DNA of 64,000 nucleotides from Yuukianura sp. NJ FZ-2021 (lineage: Eukaryota): positions 5,580,001-5,644,000 of the forward strand of contig CM102287.1 of the NCBI GenBank assembly GCA_046563655.1, read 5' to 3'. Positions 8,801 through 44,995 of this stretch are shown piece after piece. The position numbers and the translations under genes are program-made. The notes under the pieces are model-generated. The model worked only from the letters and a program-made list of their open reading frames with translations, did no database searches and was not told the DNA's origin. The stretch's first letter is position 1; each line of letters opens with the position of its first letter.

Positions 8801-11800
8801 CTCTAACTTCTTAACCGTAGGAACAACTCCAACTTTTGCCAAGTTCCAATGTTAAACTCCTCCGAACTTCAACCCCGTCTCACCGGATCCACCAAGAAGC
8901 TGTCAACAGAAACCCAAATCATAAAAAAACAAAGAACCACCTTCCAACCCCTTCCAATCTACATGTAGATTTTATAATTAAAAAATACGCTCAAACAAAC
9001 CGATTCAGAATTCAACTCAACTTCCGACCGCCTTCTGCTTCCTCTTCTTAAACAAAAATGGAAATGACGTTTCAAATTCCCAAATTCCGCAACTTTTTCG
9101 CTTTTCGTCCGGCAAAACATTTTTGGAACTTAAAAACGAAGATTTTGAGGTTGAATTTGAGATAAAACACAAGCATCGTATTGGTGAGACACGCTGTACC
9201 GTTGAAATTTTTACGATTTGGAACAAATTCCCAAACTCCAAATCATGTCCAATTTAAGTCAAACCTATAACATTTTTACTGCCAATTTGAAAATTAGCCG
9301 TTAAATGTTAAACATCATTGGAAACAAGGCGAAAGCAAAGATGTTGAAACTCAAATCCCAAAACAATGGAAGGTGGTTGGTTTGTGATGATCTAGTTAAA
9401 ATCTGCGTGTGATTTATAGCACTTTCACAAACGTTTCATTTTATTATTGGTCCATAATCAAAATGGTGCCGAATATGCACAAAACTTATTCTTCCCAAAA
9501 CTTAATCACATCCCCATCTCCTTAACATTAGCCAGAAAACTTTCATTTTACAATTAACTTTTCCTTTTCTGATCGTGACAGGTTAGGAATTAGGGGATAA
9601 GAAGTTAAACCATATTTTCACTTCCAATTTTGTGTTACTTTACGTTTTGATTGAGATTCTAATTATACCGTATGAAAATACATGCTCAATTTCAGATCCT
9701 GATCTGATCCTTCTACTCACAAATACTCCTGACTCACCTTCCAAATTCCAAATCAAACTCAAATTCATTCCAAAACATTGATCAAAAACCTAACATTGGA
9801 CAGACACCGAAGTGATTATAGGCTTCAGCACAAGCTAACTTCAGTGGAAGGTTAAATTTTCCAAGACAAAAGAGGACATGAATACCTCCTCAACGCCTCA
9901 TCTTATTTTCCTCCTTTCAAAAATGGTGAAAATTCGTAATAATTTATTCAGAGAAGCATTCCGACCATCAAGAAATCGAACTCAAAGTTGAAAACAACTC
10001 ACAAAACCAACCCACTGACAGCTCACTCTTCACTCACTTTTTAACAAAATCTTTATCAGATTCTTAGTAACAAAAAAAAATCCTCTGAACAATATTATTA
10101 CTCACCGCACCGCGTACTTTTTATATTAACAAACAAAATTCTCCACTTCAAAATCAAATCCTCCTCATTTTACATTATAAAAATTCAAAAAGCCTTTTCC
10201 ACCAATCTAAAATTAAAATCTGACTCAAAAATGTTTCATAAGGTACAACGTTTTGTAAAGAAAAAAAAATGAAATCGCTGTTTCGCAATGCTTTCGTCGT
10301 GTAGTTTACAAATGTGACAGAGATTGAACCAAGAAAGAAAACGGAGAACTCAGGAAATTACAAATGTCAAATTTGTTGGCATTTTGTCGCAATTTTTTAT
10401 TCTTTTTGGCATTTCTGACATTTCTTTGCATTTTCTGCCTTATGTTACACAAAAATTGCATCTGAAGTTTACCAAAAATGCTATGCACCAGTGTTAAAAA
10501 AAATTCTGCCATTTAGATTACACATAAATAGGTTTGCTATTTGGTGTTCCAAAAAATTTTCGCAATCAACTATTACATGGCATTTGAAAAGTATTAATTT
10601 TCCGTCACTTCCATGCCAAACATTTTAAATTCCTCTTTGAATCGCGTCGCTTTAGTTCCAAAAAGTTGTGTTTGCGTCACGGGCATCTAAAACTCAAAGC
10701 TCAAATCAAATGAAGCTCAAATCACCAAAAACAAAAGATCGCGTCATTTGTTCATGAAAAATTAAAATTAAGTACTGTGACAGTCCATTTAATTCCGGAA
10801 TCAAAACGAACTTTGAGATGGAAGTTGTAAATTAAACGACTATAGTGAGGCCTCCTCTGACAATGACTCACAGCAGACAAAAATGACACTGAAGAATGTG
10901 TTGGACCAAAAATTAAAAATGAATGAGTAATTTATTAAGTGAAATGGAGACCAGCTCCTGCTCATCTCGTTAATAAGTCATTTGACGGCAAGTTGACTAC
11001 CACCCAAGTCACTCCGCCATTTGTACACAATTCTACGACATCTTTAGACTTCACAGGCACATTCAAAGATGCTGAAGATGCCTTCGCCAAGGCCAAAAGG
11101 CCCTACCTGAGCGAGAGACACGCCTTTCTTCTCAATTAATATTCTGTCTCATGTACAAACTAACAGCCTAAGTTTTCTAAAAGATGAGGAATCTTGGAAA
11201 AACTGAACCTGTCCAGCCACCAACAGCCTCCAACAGATCAAGTTACACATTTCCATTTCCTATCTACACCAAAAACCCATTTAAAACTGAAACTGCAACT
11301 AACTTTGTAACAGAGAACTTAAATCCTCGTTCCACGTTTTACCCAGTTCCAAAAACTTAACAAAACCAATCAATCAAAAAACTACTACTTTTTCTTTCTT
11401 CTTTTTTTCAAAATTTTTTTTGTCTAAGCTTTTTTTCTAAAATTGATTCCCATAATCCCATGACATCCAGAACAGTAAGAACCAAGAGGATTTTCATCCC
11501 TGTCTCGAAAAACTTTCACTCTCAAAACTTTTTCTCAAAGCCTGACATACAGAACTTTCACTTTCAAACTTTGCTCGTAGTAGCCCATAAAATAGCAACT
11601 TCATCGCACCATAGAACTTGGACATTGACGATGAACAGCAAACTTAAGCAAGTTGAAAAATTGAAAAGCGAGATCATTCAATTCACAAAACCATTTCAAT
11701 GTTCTAAGAATTTCAACACTTAGCGTATCTCCGGTGACATTTTAAGGCATTCAATTCAATCAAAAAATTTTCATGTCGGTACTTTATGTGAAAAATTTTT

Positions 11801-14800
11801 ATGGTACTTTTTGTAACAATGAATGCAACACAAAAGGAAATTGAACGATTTCCAAAGAAAATTGTTTTCCCTACTGAGGAAATTTGAGCTTCATAGAACC
11901 AAAATTAAATTTTTGACTTTGAGTTATTTCGTGAAATTTGAATTCTTAGCACTTTCTCAAAAAGGCTTTTGTAACACTTCCTTAATTTAACCTCAAAAGT
12001 ACTAAAAAGTTTGTATTTTTCAACCTGCCGATTTTTTACGGCTGTCAAACAACAAAACAACAAAAACAAGAAAACAGTCTCACAATAACCAAAGTCAAAA
12101 TCCATTTTGTAGCAATACGGAAGACATAAAACACGATCCGAATAACAAAAGTTTCCGGAGAAAGGAAATCATTCTCCCATTTTTCAGGAGAAGTCACTCA
12201 CTTTTTGAAGTGAGTTTTCAAACACTTGGGAAATGGTAGGTCCTTAAAGGGCTCCCATTTTCAGATTCCCACATAAAGAGAAAAACAAGAAGCCCAGATG
12301 ATCAAAATTCTTCATGCTCTGTCTCTATCAATAGAAAAAGTCTCACTTCCTCCATCCTCGTTACATTTTTTCTCTCAAAAGTTTCATTTTTCTTTTGTTT
12401 TGTTTCAAAATGGTCCAGTTTCTCTCCATTTCCAAACTTTTGGCCTCTTTTTCACCCAAAAACCCAATTTCATCCGAATCATTTCAACAGCGGAGCCACA
12501 CCAAGGAAACAATGGGACACAAAAGAGTAGGAGCAGTTGGGCGAATACAAATGAAAATCAGCCACCTAGAACTCACACCCACCACAGCAGGCCTAAATTT
12601 ACACTTGTAGTTGGGAAATAAATCTTCTTCACAAATTAAGCCTCTTCAACACAATTGAATTAGTCCGTAATTCCGGAACTCCCAGACTACAATTCTTCAA
12701 TTCCAGGTTCAATAGGTCCCCTAATTCATAGACCCTCAAATAAGGGGCTACGTGGCCCTTCAATTGAATTAGATACTTCTACACTGCTCTAATTAATTCT
12801 CACTTCAAAATTACACTTCCACATACATTCAGAATTTTTGTGTAAAAGAAATCGCAATGATAATTTTCTGTTTCTCGTTCCTAAAATTCAAAATCTGTCA
12901 AAATACCATGAGTTTTTATGAATGACAATTTCACCATTGAACTATTTTTCCATTTGCTTTTTCGCAATGATTTTTGCAACTTTTTCTCCTTCGGCTTCTA
13001 GATCCACATTCAAATTCATCACTTTTGAATTTTCAAACGCTCCGTGTCAGTGGGCATCGGACGTGTTCGTAAAGCTAATTTGAAAAACGAATGTAAAGTA
13101 GCTACGAAAACTAAACTACAGCGGATATTAGCACATCAAAATTCTGAGACTTTTTAACAGACGTCCAAGTTATACGAAAAATTGCAACGCCTGACCTTTG
13201 CCCTCAGTCACTTTTTCAACATTTTTTTCGACCAAATCCATTTTAATTGCTGGGAAAATGGCCATTAAGACAAGGCTAACGAGATCAAAAATGTGAAAAT
13301 GCGGGAAAGTCGAGAAGCAGAAAAGACATTGACAGATGTCTGCTGAAACAGGAATTAATGGACTACTCCTCGCCTCTCATCTAAACCAAACAGAATTCTC
13401 TCTCACATTCTCATATAAACTTAAAGTTAACTTGTTAAGGTAAAACTAACTTATTTGTCAAGATTTCTACTCTAACGTCCATCTCTCTTGATTCTTTTAT
13501 TCCCCTGACCTCTTGACCTCACCCGCCCCCTTCACCAACCGTTGCTTTTTAGAATTCAATTGAAAATTAATTTCAAGAAAGCACTATAAATCAGAACAAA
13601 AGAAGAAGCAAGAGTTCAAGAGTCTTAAAATCCATAAATTGACACTTGAAACTCCTGTCCTAGGCAATAATTTGTTTGAAGGCGGAGTACACAACAATGG
13701 AAATTGAGGTAGTTAAGTGCCACCTTCTGCTCAAAAAAGCCTGCAAAAAATTCACACCTCTACACATATTAATTAGCACTCGACCAGATGAAGTAAAGTG
13801 CACCTTCCAATAAACACATCACTTTTAACCTTAAAGTCAACAGGAAATTTGCCAAAACTGATAATCCTGCACGACATGTGCTCTTTGTCTAATCGGACAT
13901 TAATCCCTGCACCCTGCATCAACTTAAATTCAATTTCCTACGTTCGAGGCTCGTTCCATACAAGTCACTTCCACATTACAACTTAATTAAAAGAACAATT
14001 AAAAATGAAAAAAAGCAAAATTCTTGTTCCATGACAAATGGCAATTACATGCAACCATCCATTCATATCCCGGTCAAATGTAATTAGTAGAGATTCAGAT
14101 CCAGATTCAGGATTTACTTGTCTGATTTCTTTAAAAGTTCAAAGAAAACAGGAAAATGAACTAAAAAACTGAGGTTTGTGAAAACATGAAGACAATTAGT
14201 AAGTTCATAATGAAAGGAAAAAAAATTTCCCTTGAAAGGAACAAAATAAATCACGCTTGCTACGGAAAAGTTCAAATCCTGCAATAAACAACAGCAGAAA
14301 TTAATAATCCTATGCTTTTGATTCATTACAAAGCGGAATTCAAACTTCAAAAACAAACAAAACAGAAAAAACTAGTTCGCAGGGACTTTGACTTGAGTTA
14401 ATTATTTACAACGTTGCTTTAATTAATTTAGTTAATTCTCCCTATAATAAAGTGAACTAATAAAAATTGTAAAGAAATAAATAACAATAATTAAAAAAAA
14501 ATCTCCTCTTAACAATCTACCCTGCCTTTTTTCAGTTCACTTGAAAATAATTTTCGAAAATGTATCTTTGAAATTTTAAAAAATGAAACCTATTTTGAAA
14601 AAAAATTTAACACCAAACCGATAATTTTCTTCGTCGAATAGAAACAATTAAACGTGTTACACCGAAACAACTAAAACTGAGACGCTATAGATTTTCTTGG
14701 AAATTTTACAAAATTGTAAACGTCATAGACAAAAACTAATTTAGTGCTGTTCAACACTGTCATTTCAAATTCCACAACCAATTTTCAAAAAAACACGATT

Positions 14801-15564
14801 TTCTCCGCAAAATTCCACTCACAACAACAATTCCATAGTCAAAAGTTGTTAACGATTTGACAGCGATCTCCCAGAAGTCATCTGTTCAGAAATCTTTTGT
14901 CCTCATGAAATGAAACTTGAAATTCGACCAGGAATTTGCAACACAACAAGAAGCCATCAACAAGCCATAATCTTGAAAGAAATGTTTCAGTTCCCACTTC
15001 CAAGTGCGATTCCAACACTCTCCCTTAAATTTTATTATAACAAGGTCCGAAAGTCTTAATTAATAAAATCTTCTGAGCTATATACTCTGGGATATGAAAG
15101 ATTCAGGGCGGTAGAATCCTCACGATAAAACTCAAAAGTTAAGATCCTCTGATACTCTTTTCCTGCAGTATTTCCTATCTTCCTCATGTTCTTCATTAGT
15201 ATTTCTCCATAGCCTAACAAGACGAGAAAACAAACTGATCAAAACCTTTTTTTCAAAATGAGTTTTACCACCTATAAAAAGTAAAATGCGTTTTATGACC
15301 CGAAACAATTCCACTTCTTCGCAAAGGCCAAAGACTCTCCGTCCAAGACTTTTTAGCAGCCTCCAGCATTGCGTTGCCATGGAAACAACCTGTTTCCAGT
15401 CCTTCCGATCTTATCCAACAATCTAAATTGTCCTTCCAATTAAAACTTTACAGCCCATGGACCAAGGCTCTACTCAGCACATTCCGAACATCCCTCTCCA
15501 AAACTCTACCCATAAAAACTGAGTAATTAAATTCTCAATTAATTCAAAAAGTAGGCGAAAAATA

Positions 15565-16275
15565 ATGGGCGCCTGTACGGTAAGTCCTAAAGTTACGACT
15601 TGCCAAAAACCACAACGTTCCCACTCACACCTTATCTTGTCGCAAATTTTAATTTTCACACAAAAGTACCCTGTTGTTGCGAAAAGTGAAATTTCGCGCT
15701 TACTTTGCAAACATTTCAGCACTATCCTGTTTTTAATCTACCCTAATTTTAGGTACACACTTTTCATTTTTCCTAAAATTCTCCCGGGAATTTTTTCTCT
15801 CGAGTGAAATTTTTTACCAAAAAAATAATTTTTCTCCCATTTCCAGAGCTTCCACCTTCCTCGAATCCGGAAACTGGACAGAAACCGCCGGAAATCGCCT
15901 GTCCTTCCTGCCAAACTGAACTTTCTGTCCAAGTATTTCCCACAGTATTTTCCTAACAATCGTCCAGAAAAAGATGTCCTTCTGACAGCAATGGAACAGG
16001 AGTCAGAGGAACTTCTCACGACTTGTCGGTTCCAATTCGAGGACGACCTGGACAGCGTCAGTCAAGAGGAGTCGTTGACCGCTGCAGACGCAGCGATGGA
16101 CGAGCCATTGACCATTTCCACGATGGACGACGCTTCAACCTCTGTTCAAATCTCTCTGTCCAACCCGCACTACCGTGAGCCTCTGCGCCTGCGTAGAGTT
16201 TCTTGCAGCGGCGACTCGGAGCCTACACTTCATTACCGAAATACGACTGACAGCCTGCTCGAAGCATTCGAGTAA
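15565..16275 (+). CDS. Two-exon orphan gene; predicted 147-aa N-myristoylated/palmitoylated, largely disordered protein
   Basis: Exon 1 is ATG GGC GCC TGT ACG|gtaagt (15565-15579). The acceptor ttttctcccatttccag| ends at 15846. Exon 2 (15847-16275) is open and in frame with the 94-aa ORF at 15991. The product starts MGACTSFHLPRIRKLDRNRRKSP. The exon is a GC-richer island, and AATAAA signals follow at 16290, 16303, 16309 and 16313. Confidence 0.7.
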
Positions 16276-16289
16276 ATTAATACAAAGCT

Positions 16290-16318
16290 AATAAAAATGA
16301 TTAATAAAAATAAATAAA
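16290..16318 (+). terminator. Clustered polyadenylation signals of the orphan gene
   Basis: Four AATAAA hexamers within 45 bp after the TAA stop at 16275. Confidence 0.55.
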
Positions 16319-28600: not shown

Positions 28601-31600
28601 CTTGAACAACCGAATTAAGAGCTTGAGGGAAACTTTGTGATATTTAGCACACGCAATTACTGATTTCTTTCCTCAAAAACAGGAGTTGTGTCAATCACTA
28701 CTTGATTCATGTGATTAACCCTGTCGAAAACATAATTAACGTCCTAAGTTGGCCTCAAAAACGGGCAAGAAAAGTGAGAGTTGTTCTAGAGATGAAATAT
28801 TATTGCATGATTAGCAAACTCAACCATCTTTCATCTTTTCCCTTAAGTAGATAGAGGGACTTAGGCCTACCAGGAACCTGTCTTCTGAGGAAGATGATGC
28901 TAAGGAAATTGCATAATCAGAACTCAAAGGAAGGAGGAAACTGTGAGTCAGGCGTCAGGAGGTATGACTGACAGTGAAGAAAGCACCGGAAGATTGAATA
29001 ATCACCAGAAGCAGGTTTACTATCCTTAATCAACAATCTCAAAAAGTCAAAACTCAAACAAGGGCATTTTTCCAAGAAAATTAAACCGAAAAAAAAAGTT
29101 TTACGAACAAAAAAAGTTTTGAAGAAACGAAGAAACCATAGGAAGAAGACAGCTTCTCATTACGTCTAATCAACTCAACATTTATGACTATAACACCACC
29201 AACATCTTCAACTTTTATGCACAAACCGTGCGAAAACAAACAAGGCAACTTTAAGAGCAAAAAGCCGTAAAAATTCTACCCACCTCCAGAAACAAAAAAA
29301 AATCAAAAAAATTCTTGTTATTAAAAACCTACCCCCGTCGTTAGTTGTTAAAACCCCAACAAAAGCGTTGTTCAAAGATGTTCCTCCTCTCTAGTTAGGA
29401 ATTTGAAAACCACCACAAAAACCAATTCTTGTCAAACTAAAAAACCCAAAGGAATTCAGGAATTTTCCAGGAAGCTGCCTTAGCACTTTCAAAAATTTGA
29501 AAAAAAAAGTTCCAAGTTCCTTTCTCTACATAAACTTTCCAATTTTATACTTCCTCGCTCCAGCATCCAGCAGCAGCCCTTGGAGGAGCCCTTAAAGAAA
29601 TCTCACACCTTATCTGGCCATGATCACTTAAAGATCACTGCACAGATTCTTTATTAGTCATGTTGGGAACCGCCTTTACAAAATTAAGGCTGACATTTCA
29701 TTCCACCTCTCATCTCTACAAATCTTGAAAGGATTCGAAATCTATTTTGAAATAACAAAAGACTTCCAAGTACTTCCAGCATCCAGCATTGCCAGCATCG
29801 CAGCCACTAATGAGACCAAATCCTCAACCCTTTCCTTTGAAGTCTGACTATTATTTACCTTCCAAAGGGCCTCAAGTTCCTTCACAAAGCCAAAACCTGA
29901 GCCAAATTCCTAATTATTGCACAGGGATTCCTTCCAGTGCAAAAGATTTCTGGCGGCAAAAACCGAATTCGGGAGAAATCTTTCGCTGAATTGTTTATAA
30001 GCCTCCCGGAGATCACAAAGTAGCAGAACAAAAAAAAAACAAGAAACGAACAGCAAACAACTAATCGTTCACTTTTTTCTGTTTTTGTTTGTTTTTCGCA
30101 CTCCAAAAAAATTTCATTACAAAAAATTTTCTAACTCAGCCTTTTTAGCAGAAGCCGGAATGTCAAAGTTTTTCAAACACAAAAATATCACAAAAAGACT
30201 TGTTTGAAAATCACTCACTGAAAATCTTTGAAAAAAAAACATTCAGAAAAATGTGTTTGACAAGAAAAAATTGGTTGAGAAATCTGCACTTTTTAGATGA
30301 TCATTCAAATGCTCGACAAATCTACGCCTGTCTCCAATACTATGTAACCTTTGTATAACAAAAAATTGAGCAAAATGATCATTAGTATTCGTAAGCAGAC
30401 TTGTTACAGCAAAACCAAAGGGAATTTGTAATACTTACAACAGTTTTTAGCAAAAAGTGAGATTGTAGAAAAAAAAAACGCAAAGGAAACGGGTATATAC
30501 CTAAAAAGTTCTCCATTATCCCATGTCATTTATCAACTTCAGTTTTAGTATCACTTTTTGCAATCTCTCCTCCCTTGTCCAAGTAGGCATGAATCCGCCT
30601 TCAGGAATCCATCATAAAATGTATTCCAAAAGGTACTTGTCCAACTTTTTATAAAAACAAGGCAAACGCTCTACAAAACGACTCTACTAAAAACACTCAA
30701 GCCGAAACTATTTTTCCAAAACACTTCCCTCTATTTTACTAATTCTTACAGTTTTTCAAACTATGTAGCTACGCAACATTTTTTGCATTTTTTTTTGCAA
30801 ATCCAAAAACAATGTTAAGCGTCATCCGAAAACGGTCCATCACTGAAAATTCTACTATTGCTAATAAAAACTATTGCTAAAACTCATTAGTTAAAACAAA
30901 TATAACAACCGCCCTTGACGCATGAGTAATCAAACTCGAAATAACTTGTCTGTGCCGTAATTTCAATTTGCTATTTGTTCATTTTAACAAAAATTTTGAA
31001 AAAAAAATCACTCAAAAACGTGGAATGGCTTGCGAATGTGGTGATGCATTTTCAAGACCACAAACGGTTGCCAAAATTCTAGATTTTGAGTAAGATATAA
31101 AACTCATTCTAAATTCTTCTTTTACAAGTGCAGTTAACTGACTTACATTAAACCAACTAGACAAACCACAAAACAATTGTCTTATTGGTTTGATTTATGA
31201 TCTTATTCAATTAGAAACTCAAAATAATAAATGGAATTGGTAACTTGGCCAAATTCATCTGTCTAACCATGCCTCTTCTGCCTCCTGTCCTGGCTTTAAT
31301 ATATTCCAACAGGCTGACAGGTGCTGTAAATCTGTTATTAAATCATCCTCGTTCCAAACAAAGTAAAAAAAAAACGAAATACAGTCCAACATCCTCGTTT
31401 GTTCCAACTAAAAATCCAACACCTTTCAAATTACCACGATCTCATCCTCTTACACCAACTTTCTTCTGCTGTCTATTAAATAGGTCTGACTTTAAAAACT
31501 AACTTATAAGTAGGAGGATAACAAGGTTCATGTTTGGAATCGAATAAGTGGAAAAGAAGAGTTGAATGCAGAATTAAGAATAGCTTTTGAAATAATAAAT

Positions 31601-32522: not shown

Positions 32523-35272
<2,750 letters not shown>

Positions 35273-36767
35273 GGCTGATTAACAGTTTTCTTTCTATGAA
35301 ACACATAAACTTATCGTTAGTATGTTTAATTACAACATTTAAGTCTCAGAGAGACTTCCCCTACAACTTTATCTGAACGGATGACACACCTTTAGTTTCT
35401 TCAGTAATATTCGAATCCAACAATCCAACCCTTTAATGGTACGCGATGAGCCTCGTAAGATATCCGATTCCGGCTAGCTGGCGATCCAAATCCAACGTTA
35501 ATGTTATACAATACGATACCAATCGATTGATTTGCGTTTGATTAGAAGAGGAGTGAAAGGAGAAAAGGATTAAACCAAACCCACAAAACAACAGGTAAAC
35601 TTTTTCTAATTTTCTAATTCTCAAAAAAAAAATAAAGAAACTGGACAAACGGTCTTACACACACAACACTCGAACCGTCACATTTGATTAGATGTATGGG
35701 CACTGTGTTGCGATTGGTTTGATCGGTATTAACGTAGTTACTAAGATAAAACTATACTTATTGTAATTAATAGTAATAACTAAATTCACAGGTTAAATTT
35801 TAGTTACTGTATTCAACTGGAAGTGGACTCTCTCGGTTAAAACTTGCCACAAAACGTTCAAGATATTCTCAGTTATCAAAGATGATGGTGGGCGTAAGCA
35901 GTTTGGAACATAGCCCTTTGTCGAACGCTGTTTATTCCGACTCCCGCCTTTTTGGGTTTCCGCGTTCTCCCGCTCCCACCGCACTTTTGAAGCTTATATT
36001 CTGGACAACGTGAGACGTGCGTTGCATTTGTGAAACAATAGTGCCCGAAAATTTCTATGCACAATTCACTGAAAAGTTTACTGGAAATTAAACCGGAAAT
36101 TCTACTGAAAATTAAACCGGAAATTCCATTTGGAATTTCCCGCGACACATCCTGTCCAATCAATGATGTCCCAATGGAAATTTGAGGTTGAATTGTCCGC
36201 AAATGAGTGTACGGCACATTAAACATGTATTATGTGATACATTTTGATTTTTCGGAATATTTTTGTACGTTTTTGTGACTTATCTGGCTTTTCTGACGAT
36301 TTCCTCAACCCTATACTAATCCTCTGAATAGTCTGAAAATTGTAGGAGTAAGGCAGAGGTGGAGTGACGGAATCCGCCAAATCCCATCCCGTATCCCATC
36401 CCCATGCAATGCTTTGATTCGCGATATTGCCGGTTATGTTAGGTTAGGCATTGCATCATCGGCTGTGTTGGTGGATGGATGGATAAAATATTTCTTCCAC
36501 TCCCCTCGAAAGTGATATCCGGATTTTCTTGGTCTCTTCCGGACAAAACTCACTTACGTCCATCGGAAACTGGATTTCATCCGGATTTATCCATTTACCC
36601 AGTGGATATATCCTGGACGAAATGCTGAAAAAGTGGATATCTATGAGGGGAGATCGACTGCTTTTCAATACGATTTGCTGCAAGATTTTTTTAAAAAACA
36701 CAAGCAAAAATTCCTTGCAGAAAATAGGGACGAACATTTTCTGCAAGCTTTTTTCTTGCAGAGAACG

Positions 36768-36927
36768 GAGGCGTTGTTATAGGAAGTTTGCGCAAAATCG
36801 AGCCGTTGTTATAAGAAACATGCGGAAAATCCAGATGTTGTTATAAAAAGTTTGCGGAAAATCGATGCGTTGTTATAAAAAGATTGCGGAAAATCGAGAC
36901 GTTGTTATAAGAAACATGCGAAAAATT
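36768..36927 (+). repeat. 32-bp subterminal minisatellite, left arm (5 copies)
   Basis: The GTTGTTATA core recurs at 36773, 36805, 36837, 36869 and 36901. Unit approximately GAGxCGTTGTTATAAGAAAxxTGCGGAAAATC. Confidence 0.9.
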
Positions 36928-36932
36928 TGAAG

Positions 36933-39074
36933 AATTGGAATTTTGAAAAATTCAGCTGAAATTCAACTTTTGGATATATTTCCCTTGCCGAGGATTCCCG
37001 CGTACTCTACCGTATTGAAATGTTGGTCTCGTCAAAAATTGACCTGTTCTCTAACTTTTTGACGTGACCAAATTTTTAAAAATTCACTTGTACACTTACT
37101 TTTTGAGAAATTGGAATTTTGAAAAATTCAGCTGAAATTCAACTTTTGGATATATTTGCCTTGCCGAGGATTCACGCGTACTCCACCGTCTTGAAATGTT
37201 GGTCTCGTCAAAAATTGACCTGTTCTCTAACTTTTTGACGTGACCAAATTTTTAAAAATTCACTTGTACACTTACTTTTTGAGAAATTGGAATTTTGAAA
37301 AATTCAGCTGAAATTCAACTTTTGGATATATTTGCCTTGCCGAGGATTCACGCGTACTCTACCGTCTTGAAATGTTGGTCTCGTGAAAAATTGACCTGTT
37401 CTCTAACTTTTTGACGTGACCAAATTTTTAAAAATTCACTTGTACACTTACTTTTTGAGAAATTGGAATTTTGAAAAATTCAGCTGAAATTCAACTTTTG
37501 GATATATTTGCCTTGCCGAGGATTCACGCGTACTCTACCGTCTTGAAATGTTGGTCTCGTGAAAAATTGACCTGTTCTCTAACTTTTTGACGTGACCAAA
37601 TTTTTAAAAATTCACTTGTACACTTACTTTTTGAGAAATTGGAATTTTGAAAAATTCAGCTGAAATTCAACTTTTGGATATATTTGCCTTGCCGAGGATT
37701 CACGCGTACTCTATTGTCTTGAAATGTTGGTCTCGTCAAAAATTGACCTGTTCTCTAACTTTTTGACGTGACCAAATTTTTAAAAATTCACTTGTACACT
37801 TACTTTTTGAGAAATTGGAATTTTGAAAAATTCAGCTGAAATTCAACTTTTGGATATATTTGCCTTGCCGAGGATTCACGCGTACTCTACCGTATTGAAA
37901 TGTTGGTCTCGTCAAAAATTGACCTGTTCTCTAACTTTTTGACGTGACCAAATTTTTAAAAATTCACTTGTACACTTACTTTTTGAGAAATTGGAATTTT
38001 GAAAAATTCAGCTGAAATTGAAGTTTTGGATGTATTTGCCTTGCCGAGGATTCACGCGTACTCTACCGTCTTGAAATGTTGGTCTCGTGAAAAATTGACC
38101 TGTTCTCTAACTTTTTGACGTGACCAAATTTTTAAAAATTCACTTGTACACTTACTTTTTGAGAAATTGGAATTTTGAAAAATTCAACTGAAATTGAAGT
38201 TTTGGATGTATTTGCCTTGCCGAGGATTCACGCGTAATCTACCGTCTTGAAATGTTGGTCTCGTGAAAAATTGACCTGTTCTCTAACTTTTTGACGTGAC
38301 CAAATTTTTAAAAATTCACTTGTACACTTACTTTTTGAGAAATTGGAATTTTGAAAAATTCAGCTGAAATTCAACTTTTGGATATATTTCCCTTGCCGAG
38401 GATTCACGCGTACTCTAACGTATTGAAATGTTGGTCTCGTCAAAAATTGACCTGTTCTCTAACTTTTTGACGTGACCAAATTTTTAAAAATTCACTTGTA
38501 CACTTACTTTTTGAGAAATTGGAATTTTGAAAAATTCAGCTGAAATTCAACTTTTGGATATATTTGCCTTGCCGAGGATTCACGCGTACTCTAAAGTCTT
38601 GAAATGTTGGTCTCGTCAAAAATTGACCTGTTCTCTAACTTTTTGACGTGACCAAATTTTTAAAAATTCACTTGTACACTTACTTTTTGAGAAATTGGAA
38701 TTTTGAAAAATTCAGCTGAAATTCAACTTTTGGATATATTTCCCTTGCCGAGGATTCACGCGTACTCTACCGTCTTGAAATGTTGGTCTCGTGAAAAATT
38801 GACCTGTTCTCTAACTTTTTGACGTGACCAAATTTTTAAAAATTCACTTGTACACTTACTTTTTGAGAAATTGGAATTTTGAAAAATTCAGCTGAAATGC
38901 AACTTTTGGATATATTTGCCTTGCCGAGGATTCACGCGTACTCCACCATCTTGAAATGTTGGTCTCGTGAAAAATTGACCCGTTCTCTAACTTTTTGACG
39001 TGACAAAATTTTTTGACAAAATATAACTTTTACGTTTACTTTTCGAGGAATTCTAACTTGGGAAAATTCAGCTG
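36933..39074. repeat. 176-bp tandem satellite, 12 copies plus degenerate end
   Basis: TTGGAATTTTGAAAAATTCA recurs at 36935, 37111, 37287, 37463, 37639, 37815, 37991, 38167, 38343, 38519, 38695 and 38871, an exact 176-bp period. Copies are nearly identical. Confidence 0.98.
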
Positions 39075-39101
39075 TCGTAAAATCTTAAAAGTGAATTATA
39101 A

Positions 39102-39282
39102 TTTATAACAACGTCTCGATTCTCCGCAAGTTTCCTATAACAGCGGCTCGATTCTTCGCAAGCTTTTTATAACCTCGGCTCGATTCTCCGCAATCTTCTT
39201 ATAACAGCGCTTCGATTCTTCGCAAGCTTTTTATAACAGCTCCTCGATTTTCCGCAAGCTTCTTATAACAACGTCTCGATTT
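39102..39282 (-). repeat. 32-bp subterminal minisatellite, right arm (6 copies, inverted)
   Basis: The TATAAC core recurs at 39104, 39136, 39168, 39200, 39232 and 39264; reverse complement of the left-arm unit. Confidence 0.9.
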
Positions 39283-39628
39283 CTGCAAGAAAAAAACTTG
39301 CAGAAAATGTTCGTTTTGATTTTCTGCAAGGAAATTTAATTGTGTTTTTAAAAAAAAAAAGCTTGCAGCAAATCGCGTTGAAAAGCAGTCGATCTCCCCT
39401 CATAGATATCCACCAACACTGTAGCATGGGATACGGGATGCGAGGTGGGGTATAGGGAACACGCCCACTCCGACTCCACCTCTGCCTTACTCCATCCTAA
39501 TGTTTGCATTTCGGAGTTGCATTTGTTTACATGTGTCAGCTGGTTATGTAAATTCAGAAAAAATTTAAATTACTAATTGAGAGTGATTTTTCATTTAATC
39601 AGCTTCTTTTCACTAAATCTACAAAACA

Positions 39629-40920
39629 ATGGCATCGGCAGATCATTCTGGTATGGAAATCCAAACACCACAGTCGTCACAGAAATCCAAGAAACTGTCA
39701 TACTTGGCTCAGGAAGCGCAAGCTCAGTGCGTTAAAATGTCATCGTTCAACGAAAGTAGAATTGCTGCTTCCTTCACAAATGAATTTGGTCATCAAGGTG
39801 AGCAGTTTTGGGTAAAACCTCGTCTCGTTCATACGCATTCATTCAGCAATAATAAATTGTCTAATAAAATAATAAACCTTGTGTAGGTGAAGGATACGTT
39901 TATGTTCTGGAAAAAAATGAAGATGCCGATGAACTGGAACTTCTGATCAAGATTGACTACCGTGACAACATATTTGATGTCAGTTTTAATGACAAGGATC
40001 CAAATCTGCTTACAACTGCGGCCGGAGACGGCTGGGTACAAATTTGGAACTTGGGCAACAAATATCCTAAAGTGGCTACGCATGAGTTCAAAGGGCATCG
40101 CAAGGAGATGTCATCAGTGGATTGGAATCTGTCGAAATTCTCGGATCATATTTTAGCAGGCAGTTGGTAAGATTTCCTCCAGCCTGTTTTACCAAATACA
40201 TGAGCAAATTGAAGCAAGGAGTAATCGCAAAAACTTGAATTTTTGTTTACTAATCAAGGGATGGAACTGTTTCTACATACGATGTAACCAGCCAGTGGCC
40301 TCTTGTAAAAATCCCTGCTTCAGAATTAGTAGTACATCAAGCAATATGGAGTCCACATAGCGCCAAGTACTGTATATCCGCCAGCAGCGATGGAGTTCTG
40401 CAGCTTTGGGACTTGAACGTCACTCCTCCTAAATCGTCGATCTACTTGTGTGCAAGTGATGAAGAGCTTTTGTCGTGTGACTGGTCCAAATACTATCCAT
40501 GGTTAGTAGCTACGGCCGGCAGCGACGCTTTGGTCAAGGGTTGGGACCTCCGTAACTACTCTCTCCCATTGTTCGTCAACGAAGATCATGGGCAGGCCGT
40601 GAAGAACATAAAATTTTCACCGTGGCATCAAACACTAATCGCCAGTGCAAGCTATGACTGTACTGTCCGGTAAGAATTTTTCATGGCTAACCTAAAGAAA
40701 CCTAACCTACTAAAACTGAATAATTTAATAGATGTAATTTGGTTTTAATTACAGATTATTCGATTACCAAGTGTCCAATTCAAGTCTAGAAATACTGAAT
40801 CACCATACGGAAAACGTTTATGGAGTGGATTGGAACTATCACAAGAAAAATGAACTTGTCACTTGCAGTTGGGATTCAACAGTGCAAGTACTCACCCCGG
40901 AATCTTTGAAGGGTTCCTAG
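39629..40920 (+). CDS. PEX7: Peroxisomal targeting signal 2 receptor (peroxin-7), WD40, 341 aa
   Basis: Exons 39629-39797, 39887-40166, 40259-40669 and 40755-40920, phase-consistent. Motifs IFDVSF...AAGDGWVQIW, GHRKEMSSVDW...GSWDGTV, IWSPH...SASSDG, EELLSCDWSKY...GWDLRN, IKFSPWH...ASASYDCTVR and HHTENVYGVDW...CSWDSTV follow the PEX7 repeat order. Confidence 0.92.
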
Positions 40921-41123: not shown

Positions 41124-44100
41124 TTAGGCAGTGGGTCGTGTACGCTTCAAATCGAATGACCCCTTACGAATATCATCCAGTAACATATCAACAATGCTCT
41201 TTTCATTGTTTGTAGGTGATGGCGTCGATTTCAGTTTCTTGGATCCTGCAGTAGTTCCATTGGCAACATTATTCTTGTCATTTTCATCTTGTTTTGCCTT
41301 GAGTGCCGCTTGTCTTGCCTCTCGCTTCCGTCTATCTTCGTTTTCAATTCTAGTTGTCTTGAGTTTCTCACAGACTTGGGCCATTGACTTGAAGAATTCG
41401 TCGACACAGAACTTTTTGAGATCCTCTCCAAATTGTTGTGCTAATTTCTTTTCCAGATCCTTGGTTTTGGACAATTTGTCCTCAGTTTCTTTGATCCGAA
41501 CCTCAGCAGAGGAGATGAAAGAGCCGAACTGGTCCAGAATGTCCGGTGAAGTTTTGCCAGCAGTTTCAACTTGTTTTGACACTTTTGTGAGATTCTTGTG
41601 AAGTTGAGCTGCTTCAGATCCAAGTTGTTCAAGACTCAACCGAGCAGCAGCGGCGAGATGCTTGAAATCAGCGATAAAGCTCAGCCATTGTGGATTTTCC
41701 CGTTCGACGACATCGACTATGAAGTGCATTAAGGTCATCCTAGGCTTGTTTGATTTCGTGTCGTATAGTCGCTCCAGAATTTGAATTTTGAATCCAGATG
41801 CTTCTCCAGCATAACTTCCCTGTAAGTTTTTTGAATCAAATTGGATGTTTGTTTTGTAAATTGAATTGTAAATTGGTGTTTTTCTTTCTTACAGCGTTTA
41901 GAAAGTTGCCAGTGGACAAGACAAACGCGAGGAACGAATGGAAAGATGCGTTGGTCAGGAAATCTTCGGCTGCACTCAAAATCGTGTCCAAGTTTTTGTT
42001 GATTCCATCTATGGCTGGTCCGAAATCTTCCTTCAAGAACATCACTTCTGCTCGGAGTCGATATGCCGGAACAGCCAGAACAAGTTTGAAGAAGTGCTCG
42101 GCGCTGGCCAATTTGTCCAGGTCTCCATCGTAAGCATTCATCATACCAACCTGTAAATTTTTGAAAACGTTTTTCAGAAAGTCGGAAAAGACATCGTCAC
42201 CTCGGGATCCTTTGTTCAAGATTTTTCAAAAAAAATCAGCTCTTTACCTCGTCTTCAACCGGTAGAACATTGAGAATCCCCTTGAGTCGTTCAGCTCCAA
42301 TTTGCTCACTCTTGCCCTCCCGAATCAGCGCCACGATTTCAACGTCCGGCATACGAAATTGTTTCAGAAAAATGTCAATGTTCATACTTCGACGACCGTC
42401 AAGCAAAGACACTTTTGTTGGAGTCGCGGCTTTGGCTGCTGCGGGCTTGTCTGATTGTACTTCCCGGGTTTTTTCACAAAACAGCATTTCGGCTTCACTG
42501 ACATGTGACTTGACCATTTCCGCTGTATTTTGTCCATATTTTGTTAAAATGTCGGTCCATATTGTCGTGGATATTGCTTGGTTAGGGATCTTCGTCCAAG
42601 CTAGCTTCTTTGTTTTCGTAGATGGCCTCGGTAGAATGGATCCAATCACGCCCATGAACGAAACTGGTTGAGATGATGGTGGGGCGGCGTAGTTTTGGCC
42701 AACTCTTACCGGTGGTGGTACAAATTCGCCACCAAAAGGAGGAGGAGGTGGTGGTGGTCCCCCCATCATGGGAGGAGGAGGTGGTGGTCCCCCCATCATC
42801 GGAGGAGGGGGTGGTGGAGGTGGGCCACCCATCATTCCAGGCATCGGTGGCGGTGGTGGAGCTCCTCCGTTCATCATTCCAGGCATCGGGGGTGGAGGTG
42901 GTATTCCACCATTCATCATTCCAGGCATAGGCGGAGGTGGAGGTGGGGCTACACCGCTCGTCATTCCTGGCATTGGTGGTGGTGGTGGTGGAGCAGGACT
43001 GCTCATCATTCCTGGCATGGGAGGCGGAGGTGGTGGTGGGGCTCTGTTATTCATCATTCCAGGCATTGGTGGTGGTGGAGGTGGTGGGGCTCCGCCATTC
43101 ATCATTCCTGGAATAGGAGGCGGAGGTGGTGGGGCAAAACCGCTCGTCATTCCTGGCATGGGAGGCGGAGGTGGTGGAGCAAAGCTGTTCATCATTCCAG
43201 GCATTGGTGGTGGTGGTGGTGGGGCAGCTCCTCCTGAAGTTCTTGGCATTGGAACTGGAACTTCCGTGGCAGCATCCACCATCATCCCTGGCATCGGAGG
43301 TGGAAGTGGTGGCGCGGAAGGTGGCTTTGTTTTGGTTTCTGTACAATGTTGTCCATTCATCACCGGCTCCACGGATCCTTCTGTTTGAACAGCAACATCT
43401 TCCAAGGTAGGTTTTATGCTCTGTTTCTTTGCCAATGCTGACCAAGTTTTGATAATCTTTTGAGTCAAGGTCTGCGTCGCTGTGGTTGTCATTTGTTTGC
43501 CAGAATTTATAGCTCCGGAAGTGATGACTGATGCTTTGAGGAAGTTGTTTGGGTGGGTGGGGTCAGACAGTTGCGTAATAAGTGTCCACATCCGGTCGAC
43601 GTCATCTTGCTGCTTCGACTCCTCCCAGTAGTTCAAATTTTGAAGTAAAATTAAAAAATAGTAAGCTCTTGATCCGTCACTTTCAACAATTTTTTGATGT
43701 AAGAGGTCAAACAATTTGTGATAATCGGACGTGAGTTCGATTCCCAGCTCCTCCGCTGCAAGTTCATCTTTGTACTCACGATCTTCAAACACTTGACACT
43801 GAATGCTCAGTTCCTCATCTTCTGAATCTTGCAGCTTATTCAGAATCTTTTGCAAACCCAAACCTAATTCAAGTTAGAAAATATCAACTTTGACCCAAAT
43901 TTCAAAAAACATCGATCAACTTATTTTAAAATTAAGCATTTCCAACTAGATCTGAAGTAAAACTTACTTTTAAATTCGCGGCGCATGCGCACACGTTCCT
44001 TGAGGTCATCGCAACACCCCAGGATGATACAGTTGACCAGTGCGACGAGCGTAGCTTGGTATGAAGGGACATCAGTACTGGCCAATTCTTCTAGAATGAA

Positions 44101-44995
44101 GCTAAAACGATATCGTAGGTTCTTGGCAACTCTCAGTTTTTCCAATCCATCCAGAACAACAGCATGGCCTGCCTTGTTGTAAATGGAAATGGCACACAGA
44201 AGTTCAAAAACTTGTTTCTTCACGGAAGCATTCGAAGTTTGAACAACTGCACGCAAATGTTTAGTATTTTTAAAAAACTTTTTAGTCTTTTTACATGCTT
44301 TAGTGAACCACTTGGCGCTTACTTTTAATAAGCGTTGCTGCATCGTTGGCACTGTTAATCAAAAACTCCAGTCCAGCTCGACTGTTGATAACTTCCTTGA
44401 TGCAGGCCACTACTTGTAGCACATGCAGAGCTTCTGCCATACTATGGGAATGTCCACCGTGACTTAGACTGTTTAACGCTTCCAGTAAAATACCCAAACC
44501 ATGGAGTGATAGAAATTCTTCGATCCAGCCTTTTTCCGATTTCTCTGTCATTTACAAACAATTTTCAAGGTCAAATGGCTTTTGACAAGGTCAAATGGCT
44601 TTTGACAAGGTCAAATGTTTAGGTTTTAAGTAAATCAATAAACAGATTTGGCTTTAGTTTGATTTAAAAGTGTCAAGGACAACCATGATTGATTTTCTTT
44701 ACATTTTGCAGATACGAATTTGCTTACGAATCAAGTTGCGAAGTCCTCTGAAGTTTTTGACATTGGGATTCCTCAGAGTCATGATAACAAGTTCTGGATC
44801 TGCATTGCCTAAATTACTGAATGTGGCTGATTTCAATGGGATCTTGCCAGATCCCTTGCCACGACGTCCAGAAAGTCCAGCAGAGTGTACATTATTTCCA
44901 GCATTTGAATTTTCTCCATTTGCAGCAGAAGCAGCATTTTGAGCCATCGAGCGCCACTTTGCGCCCATTTTCATCCCGCCGCGTTTTGACGCCAT
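41124..44995 (-). CDS. INF2: Inverted formin 2-like formin (DID/FH3-FH1-FH2-DAD/WH2), 1112 aa
   Basis: Exons (minus strand): 44995-44728, 44544-44323, 44246-43968, 43863-42248, 42150-41893, 41819-41124. Domains: DID (ADPELVI...[18 protein letters not shown]...[12 protein letters not shown]), poly-Pro FH1, FH2 (KKLAWTKIP...[17 protein letters not shown]...[16 protein letters not shown]...[13 protein letters not shown]) and an INF2-type C-terminal DAD/WH2 ([19 protein letters not shown]). An in-frame TGA immediately precedes the ATG. Confidence 0.92.
42737..43320 (-). repeat. Coding tandem repeat of the formin FH1 domain
   Basis: About a dozen poly-Pro tracts with unit P(5-7)MPGMM(N/T/S)xxA, roughly 42-51 bp per unit. 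Confidence 0.85.
44566..44617. repeat. 20-bp tandem repeat (2.6 copies) in formin intron 1
   Basis: CAAGGTCAAATGGCTTTTGA x2 followed by CAAGGTCAAATG. Confidence 0.85.

Follow-up and report, generated by a model that had tools for sequence, protein, structure and literature searches.

The window (the whole 64-kb stretch of DNA analysed) is eukaryotic, has a GC content of 34–48% and contains at its left end a Toll/Tollo-type gene (1–2804, + strand) that runs off the 5′ end. The gene encodes LRRs, a transmembrane segment, a TIR domain whose coding sequence is interrupted by a 493-nt intron, and a long Pro/His-rich C-terminal tail. A 380-residue exon of this gene matches 301 proteins at E ≤ 1e-20, the top two with 80% and 76% identity. 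Among named proteins, the closest are from Orchesella dallaii (62%), Orchesella cincta (55%) and Folsomia candida (53%, covering 73% of the query), and insect Tollo proteins (41–46% identity) rank after these springtail proteins. Because the best named relatives are springtail proteins, the genome is springtail-like.

The + strand is asymmetric throughout 1–32 kb, intergenic DNA included, with C exceeding G (GC skew of −0.16 to −0.37) and A exceeding T. The skew weakens or reverses past ~32 kb, where the recognisable genes are on the − strand, and may be linked to transcription or to replication. Three weakly coding-like + strand stretches (10817–11136, 13280–13381 and 28904–29026; ~10–12.6 bits per 30 codons) could be small unannotated exons or noise. 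Further to the right are an acidic open frame of 193 codons with no Pfam family (34697–35278, − strand), a WD40-repeat gene with short introns of ~80–90 nt (39868–40900, + strand), and an adjoining formin-like gene (41124–44358, − strand) whose poly-Pro (FH1-type) repeats correspond to a 42–186 bp tandem array at 42.7–43.2 kb. On either side of a 176-bp satellite (36926–39074; 12.2 copies with 97% matches) is an array of a 32-bp unit (36768–36913 and 39103–39289); the two arrays align with one another only between opposite strands (up to 104 nt at 86.5%), and the segment as a whole (36768–39289) resembles a foldback or terminal-inverted-array element. A search of the entire window against Rfam gave no matches.

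Organization and coding character of the candidate gene

The candidate gene is located at 15565–16318 on the + strand, 12.8 kb beyond the end of the Toll gene and on the same strand, in keeping with the ~13 kb given in an earlier note on this DNA; a functional link between the two genes is speculation. The coding part of its proposed first exon (15565–15579; ATGGGCGCCTGTACG) contains an ATG and four further codons (M-G-A-C-T), and the ATG (15565–15567) has A at −3 and G at +4. The proposed intron is 267 nt long (15580–15846), beginning with GTAAGT (15580–15585) and ending with tttccag at 15846. Exon 2 (15847–16275) encodes 142 residues followed by TAA (16273–16275), for a product of 5 + 142 = 147 residues, and has two parts. 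The 5′ part (15847–15990) has 48 codons, is basic, contains the sequence RRKS, and could be either coding or 5′ UTR. The 3′ part (15991–16275) starts with an internal ATG that has G at both −3 and +4, and its 94 codons, ending at the TAA, encode an acidic segment containing RRVS. The stop-to-stop frame has 148 codons (15829–16275) with 15847 on its codon boundary; if the intron is retained, the frame from ATG 15565 ends at a stop at 15805–15807. The earlier note had described the ATG, the GTAAGT, the ttccag acceptor, the 147-residue product and four AATAAA copies, and all of these are present.

Two alternative 3′ splice sites are also in phase, with exon starts at 15934 and 15946; the latter (cccacag) had been noticed before, and the former is additional. 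The four AATAAA copies (16290, 16303, 16309 and 16313) lie 15–41 nt past the stop within a single A/T-rich run (16290–16318) that is likely the polyadenylation signal, in a sequence with 42 AATAAA across 1–32000. Upstream of exon 1, two ATGs (15379 and 15457) begin short frames within 15379–15522, each closed by a stop ahead of 15565. Only a transcription start further upstream would make them uORFs; core-promoter motif matching gave weak consensus matches only, a TATA-like CATAAAA at 15511 and TCAATT at 15535, which would put the start site downstream of both ATGs.

The segment 15991–16272 is clearly protein-coding by composition and codon usage. It falls within the only strong GC island of 3.1–33.9 kb (15851–16300), which reaches a maximum of 0.57 compared with a background of 0.34–0.39. 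Codon usage was scored using a table of 1828 codons from the recognisable exons of the window (Toll, WD40, formin and the one acidic frame at 34697–35278, taken as coding training data for its composition), with trinucleotides from 27.9 kb of the same strand as background. The exon 2 frame scores 0.316 bits per codon, compared with 0.28–0.29 for the Toll exons and 0.32–0.33 for the WD40 exons, and none of the 15 other + strand frames with 100 codons or more in 3.2–32 kb scores above −0.013 bits per codon. The 48-codon windows over 15991–16272 score 33.5 and 18.7 bits, values that are each reached by none of 2789 open non-coding windows. The signal is also frame-specific, with 48.9 bits for 15991–16272 in frame and no more than 26.0 in any of the remaining five frames, and the GC content at the three codon positions of 15991–16275 (0.59/0.44/0.63) resembles that of the Toll exons. 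The length of the frame is no better than chance, as two of the 15 other + strand frames are longer or equal (150 and 159 codons); the + strand of 1–32 kb is G-poor and has many long open frames, so that ORF length alone is uninformative. A real small gene is very probably present at this locus.

The 5′ part of exon 2 behaves differently. Its score is 1.2 bits, with scores as low in 9.8% of 61 held-out real coding windows and as high in 6.3% of the 2789 open non-coding windows (likelihood ratio ~1.1). Only three stop trinucleotides are present in 15847–15990 in any frame and all three frames are nearly open, so that openness there is uninformative too. In sliding windows the coding signal begins at ~15970–15991, coinciding with the good-context ATG 15991, and G content is 0.16 in 15847–15990 versus 0.26 in 15991–16272, although the C-terminal exon of the Toll gene is likewise at 0.16. 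Because 15847–15990 is statistically neutral, codon statistics cannot choose between products of 147 and 94 residues.

Splice signals and the predicted N-terminus

The splice signals back the two-exon organization. GTAAGT occurs five times on the + strand of 1–32 kb, one of these being the real Toll donor at 316, and three times in 27.7 kb of + strand background. The same background contains no instance of an ATG followed by an open frame and GTRAGT, and three instances with GTRAG (P ~0.03 within 300 nt); the ATG at 15565 is the only one in 15000–15850 with an ATG–open frame–GTRAG(T) arrangement. The acceptor at 15846 is a CAG with pyrimidines at 16 of the 20 positions before the AG. There are 11 such sites in the 27.7 kb background, and the probability of one falling in phase by chance in the 162-nt open stretch before ATG 15991 is ~0.02. 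Donor and acceptor together would arise by chance in <0.1% of cases if independent, a figure for which thresholds were set post hoc and independence was assumed, and after a heavy discount for this a real intron is still favoured. The pair picked out in the earlier note is thus unusually good and in phase by background counts. The real introns of the window have GTAAGT, GTAAGA, GTAAAG or GTACGT donors and acceptors that are mostly ACAG, TTAG or similar, and their lengths of ~75–490 nt include that of the proposed intron.

If donor 15580 is used, the mRNA necessarily includes ATG 15565, in frame and in good context. A two-exon gene with an MGACTS start is, overall, somewhat more probable than not and is the best single reading of the locus, ahead of a 94-residue product from ATG 15991. 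Spliced-leader trans-splicing at the 15846 acceptor was considered, as the introns looked nematode-like, and was dropped because the Toll matches are to springtails; trans-splicing of this kind is not known from hexapods.

When exon 2 starts at 15847, a regular-expression search finds the N-myristoylation pattern, G-{EDRKHPFYW}-x-x-[STAGCN]-{P}, at the N-terminus of the spliced product. The required Gly at position 2 (ATG GGC, 15565–15570) is valid only given a start at ATG 15565. The M-G-x-x-x-S consensus put forward earlier is matched as well, but only via the 15847 acceptor: exon starts at 15934 or 15946 put Tyr at position 6 and break the pattern, bearing out the expectation that use of 15946 would remove Ser6, and the unspliced reading, with Val at position 6, breaks it too. 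None of 349 background + strand ATGs carries the pattern. A myristoylation-type start is found in ~1–2% of real eukaryotic proteins, and about 1–2% of random ATGs would also carry it. As the frequencies are similar, the motif hardly separates a real start from a chance one, and the earlier argument that a motif existing only after splicing speaks against chance is weak. The pattern is also loose. The motif matters only once a start at 15565 is accepted. According to PMC5170614, NMT prefers Ser or Thr at position 6 and palmitoylation requires earlier myristoylation. N-myristoylation of the product in vivo is plausible, at somewhat less than even odds.

The predicted product has its Cys at position 4 instead of 3, and its basic residues begin to cluster only at residue 11. 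Exon 2 residues 1–48 are basic (11 K/R, pI 11.0) and residues 49–142 are acidic and Ser/Thr-rich (21 D/E, 22 S/T, pI 4.1). There are two R-R/K-x-S/T sites, at exon 2 residues 14 and 116; this motif is short and common and is no proof of phosphorylation. The codon-neutral segment 15847–15990 encodes Ser6 as well as the basic cluster and the first RRxS. PKA regulation, a signalling role and palmitoylation are conjecture.

Homology searches and alternative interpretations

Searches with the product reveal no relatives. Pfam has no family for it at E values up to 1, in agreement with the earlier note, which had recognised no domain. A word-index protein search among near lengths gave 13 word-sharing candidates, none of which scored. 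A phmmer search of 1.84 billion representative proteins gave two matches, a bacterial-type RCC1-like repeat protein and a TPR-kinase, both judged spurious as their scores add up 5–6 weak repeat stretches; the best pairwise stretch is 26.6 bits, with 33% identity over 51 aa. Membership of the RCC1-like group was rejected: the 1003-aa protein (P0002) is matched in six weak stretches and the query has a single such stretch, and Pfam matches no RCC1 family at E values of 1 or less. In the Atlas, neither residues 49–142 nor the whole protein had a usable match, and the recognition value of 1571 is lower than the 2300 reached by 91 of 100 known-family proteins. Among PDB sequences there was one match, which is not significant (E 0.75). 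Single-sequence AlphaFold2 prediction (no alignment) has a mean pLDDT of 37.7, which fits disorder and is equally expected of any orphan.

Metagenome searches gave similar results. A scan with the product yielded 464 pattern matches with none confirmed. A scan for synteny with the Toll exon yielded seven loci of no more than 10.5 kb each, and tblastn of the product against these seven gave a best E of 1.0, with flanks too short to extend 13 kb downstream. The description of the gene as an orphan therefore stands in the sense that no relative was detected, in a protein collection where even the conserved Toll exon has nothing closer than a match of 80% identity. No second copy of the gene is present within the 64-kb window and no flanking repeats are present at the locus, and an origin from a transposable element was rejected on these two grounds.

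The preferred explanation, held at a little short of even confidence when taken as a whole, is that the locus carries an unannotated, lineage-restricted, two-exon + strand gene with an acylated product held at the membrane. Exon 1 (15565–15579) would supply the start codon and four codons, the 267-nt GTAAGT...CAG intron would be removed, and exon 2 (15847–16275) would add 142 codons ahead of the polyadenylation-signal cluster. The three-part predicted product begins with MGACTS, continues with a basic stretch and ends in a long, acidic tail rich in Ser and Thr. After removal of the initiator Met, Gly2 would be N-myristoylated and Cys4 possibly palmitoylated next, with the basic stretch contributing electrostatic affinity for the membrane; the disordered acidic tail would be kept there as a small adaptor or phosphoprotein. 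An elaborated version, in which the product is a dual-lipidated, disordered, springtail-specific phosphoprotein and the 3′ splice site selected decides whether it is membrane-anchored, is improbable. Use of acceptor 15847 would give the form with Ser6 and the basic cluster, acylatable and membrane-binding, and use of 15934 or 15946 would give a Tyr6 form that is not acylatable. If true, an acidic adaptor that is soluble in other respects would owe a conditional anchor to one tiny exon.

The main rival to the acylated two-exon gene is a real gene whose product is only the 94-residue protein from ATG 15991, a soluble, disordered acidic phosphoprotein with no lipid anchor. In this case 15847–15990 would be 5′ UTR or would contain the transcription start, and the MGACT exon would be unused or in phase by chance. 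It is unlikely, although it has the position of the coding signal in its favour, which starts at ~15970–15991 and rises from 1.2 bits upstream to 33.5 and 18.7 bits downstream, along with the G at −3 and +4 of ATG 15991 and the step in G content at the same point. Against these, 9.8% of genuine coding windows have scores as low as that of 15847–15990, the Toll C-terminal exon is equally G-poor, and an out-of-frame ATG at 15974 would form a 3-codon uORF just ahead of ATG 15991. A 94-residue product would also make a coincidence of the ATG, the GTAAGT and the in-phase CAG, at ~0.03 × 0.02 by background counts. A good deal less likely is that the frame is non-functional, being either what is left of a decaying coding sequence (a pseudogene or a piece of some unknown element) or an accident of composition. 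The lack of any homologue among the 1.84 billion representatives apart from the two spurious repeat-protein matches, the lack of a Pfam family, the low pLDDT and the Atlas recognition value below 2300 all speak for this, and this G-poor strand is rich in long open frames. However, none of 2789 open non-coding windows comes near the frame-specific codon usage, the reading frame is uninterrupted and has polyadenylation signals directly past its stop, the locus is without flanking repeats or a second copy in the window, and a piece of any known gene or element should have matched something.

Also improbable is that the exon 2 frame represents the terminal exon of a longer gene with other coding exons further upstream. 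The C>G and A>T skew over all of 1–32 kb may reflect + strand transcription, and two of the weakly coding-like stretches noted above (10817–11136 and 13280–13381) reach ~10–11 bits in 30-codon windows. Against this, of the four other GTRAGT donors examined upstream (6629, 7918, 12210 and 14199), three are preceded by only 1–10 open in-phase codons; the donor at 12210 has 68 open codons and no ATG. No GC island is present in 11150–15851, and no coding-like island is present within 4.7 kb upstream of the gene. Assigning exon 2 to the Toll gene as an alternative terminal exon was also considered and rejected because of its phase, as the Toll donor at 1742 (phase 1) would enter another frame and reach a stop after ~36 codons.

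The acylated two-exon gene, if confirmed, would be one more small lineage-restricted gene for a poorly annotated hexapod group. It would also illustrate how a short first coding exon can be missed by ab initio gene finders, such that a lipid-anchored protein is wrongly annotated as soluble and shorter. Orphan disordered proteins are well known, as are acylation motifs at the N-terminus and very small first exons, and no long-standing question is opened. The object is a lineage-restricted small disordered protein of an ordinary kind and its interest is modest.

Comparison with known systems

SH4-type N-termini are found in Src-family kinases (Fyn, Lck and Src) and in G-alpha i/o subunits, and the palmitoylatable Cys of such anchors is usually Cys3. 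The SH4-type recipe combines myristate with palmitate or with electrostatic membrane binding (see PMC5170614). The predicted product resembles these proteins in its Met-Gly start, Ser6, a Cys near Gly2 and basic residues downstream. It differs in having Cys4, a basic cluster that starts only at residue 11, and then a 94-residue acidic tail without a predicted fold. It also has no sequence homology to the Src family or to G-alpha, with no SH3, SH2, kinase or G-alpha domain in Pfam (E up to 1) or phmmer searches. The SH4-type anchor named in the earlier note is thus retained for the pattern of Gly2, Ser6, Cys and basic residues, but as an analogy only, given the lack of Src homology and a Cys at position 4 instead of 3.

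Small lipid-anchored adaptors and scaffolds such as LAMTOR1/p18, smAKAP, BASP1 and MARCKS are short or disordered and are built mainly around an N-terminal acylation motif that tethers an interaction or phosphorylation region to the membrane. The likeness of the candidate product to these is one of architecture only, as it has no Pfam family and no usable Atlas match. As a gene, the candidate has a parallel in the lineage-restricted genes of Collembola (Orchesella cincta genome, PMC4987106). Like collembolan orphan genes, the candidate is small and domain-less, with no relative detected beyond a narrow lineage. In comparison with them, it has the codon usage and GC content of an established gene and not of DNA that was non-coding until recently, and may therefore be a fast-evolving gene, not a young one.
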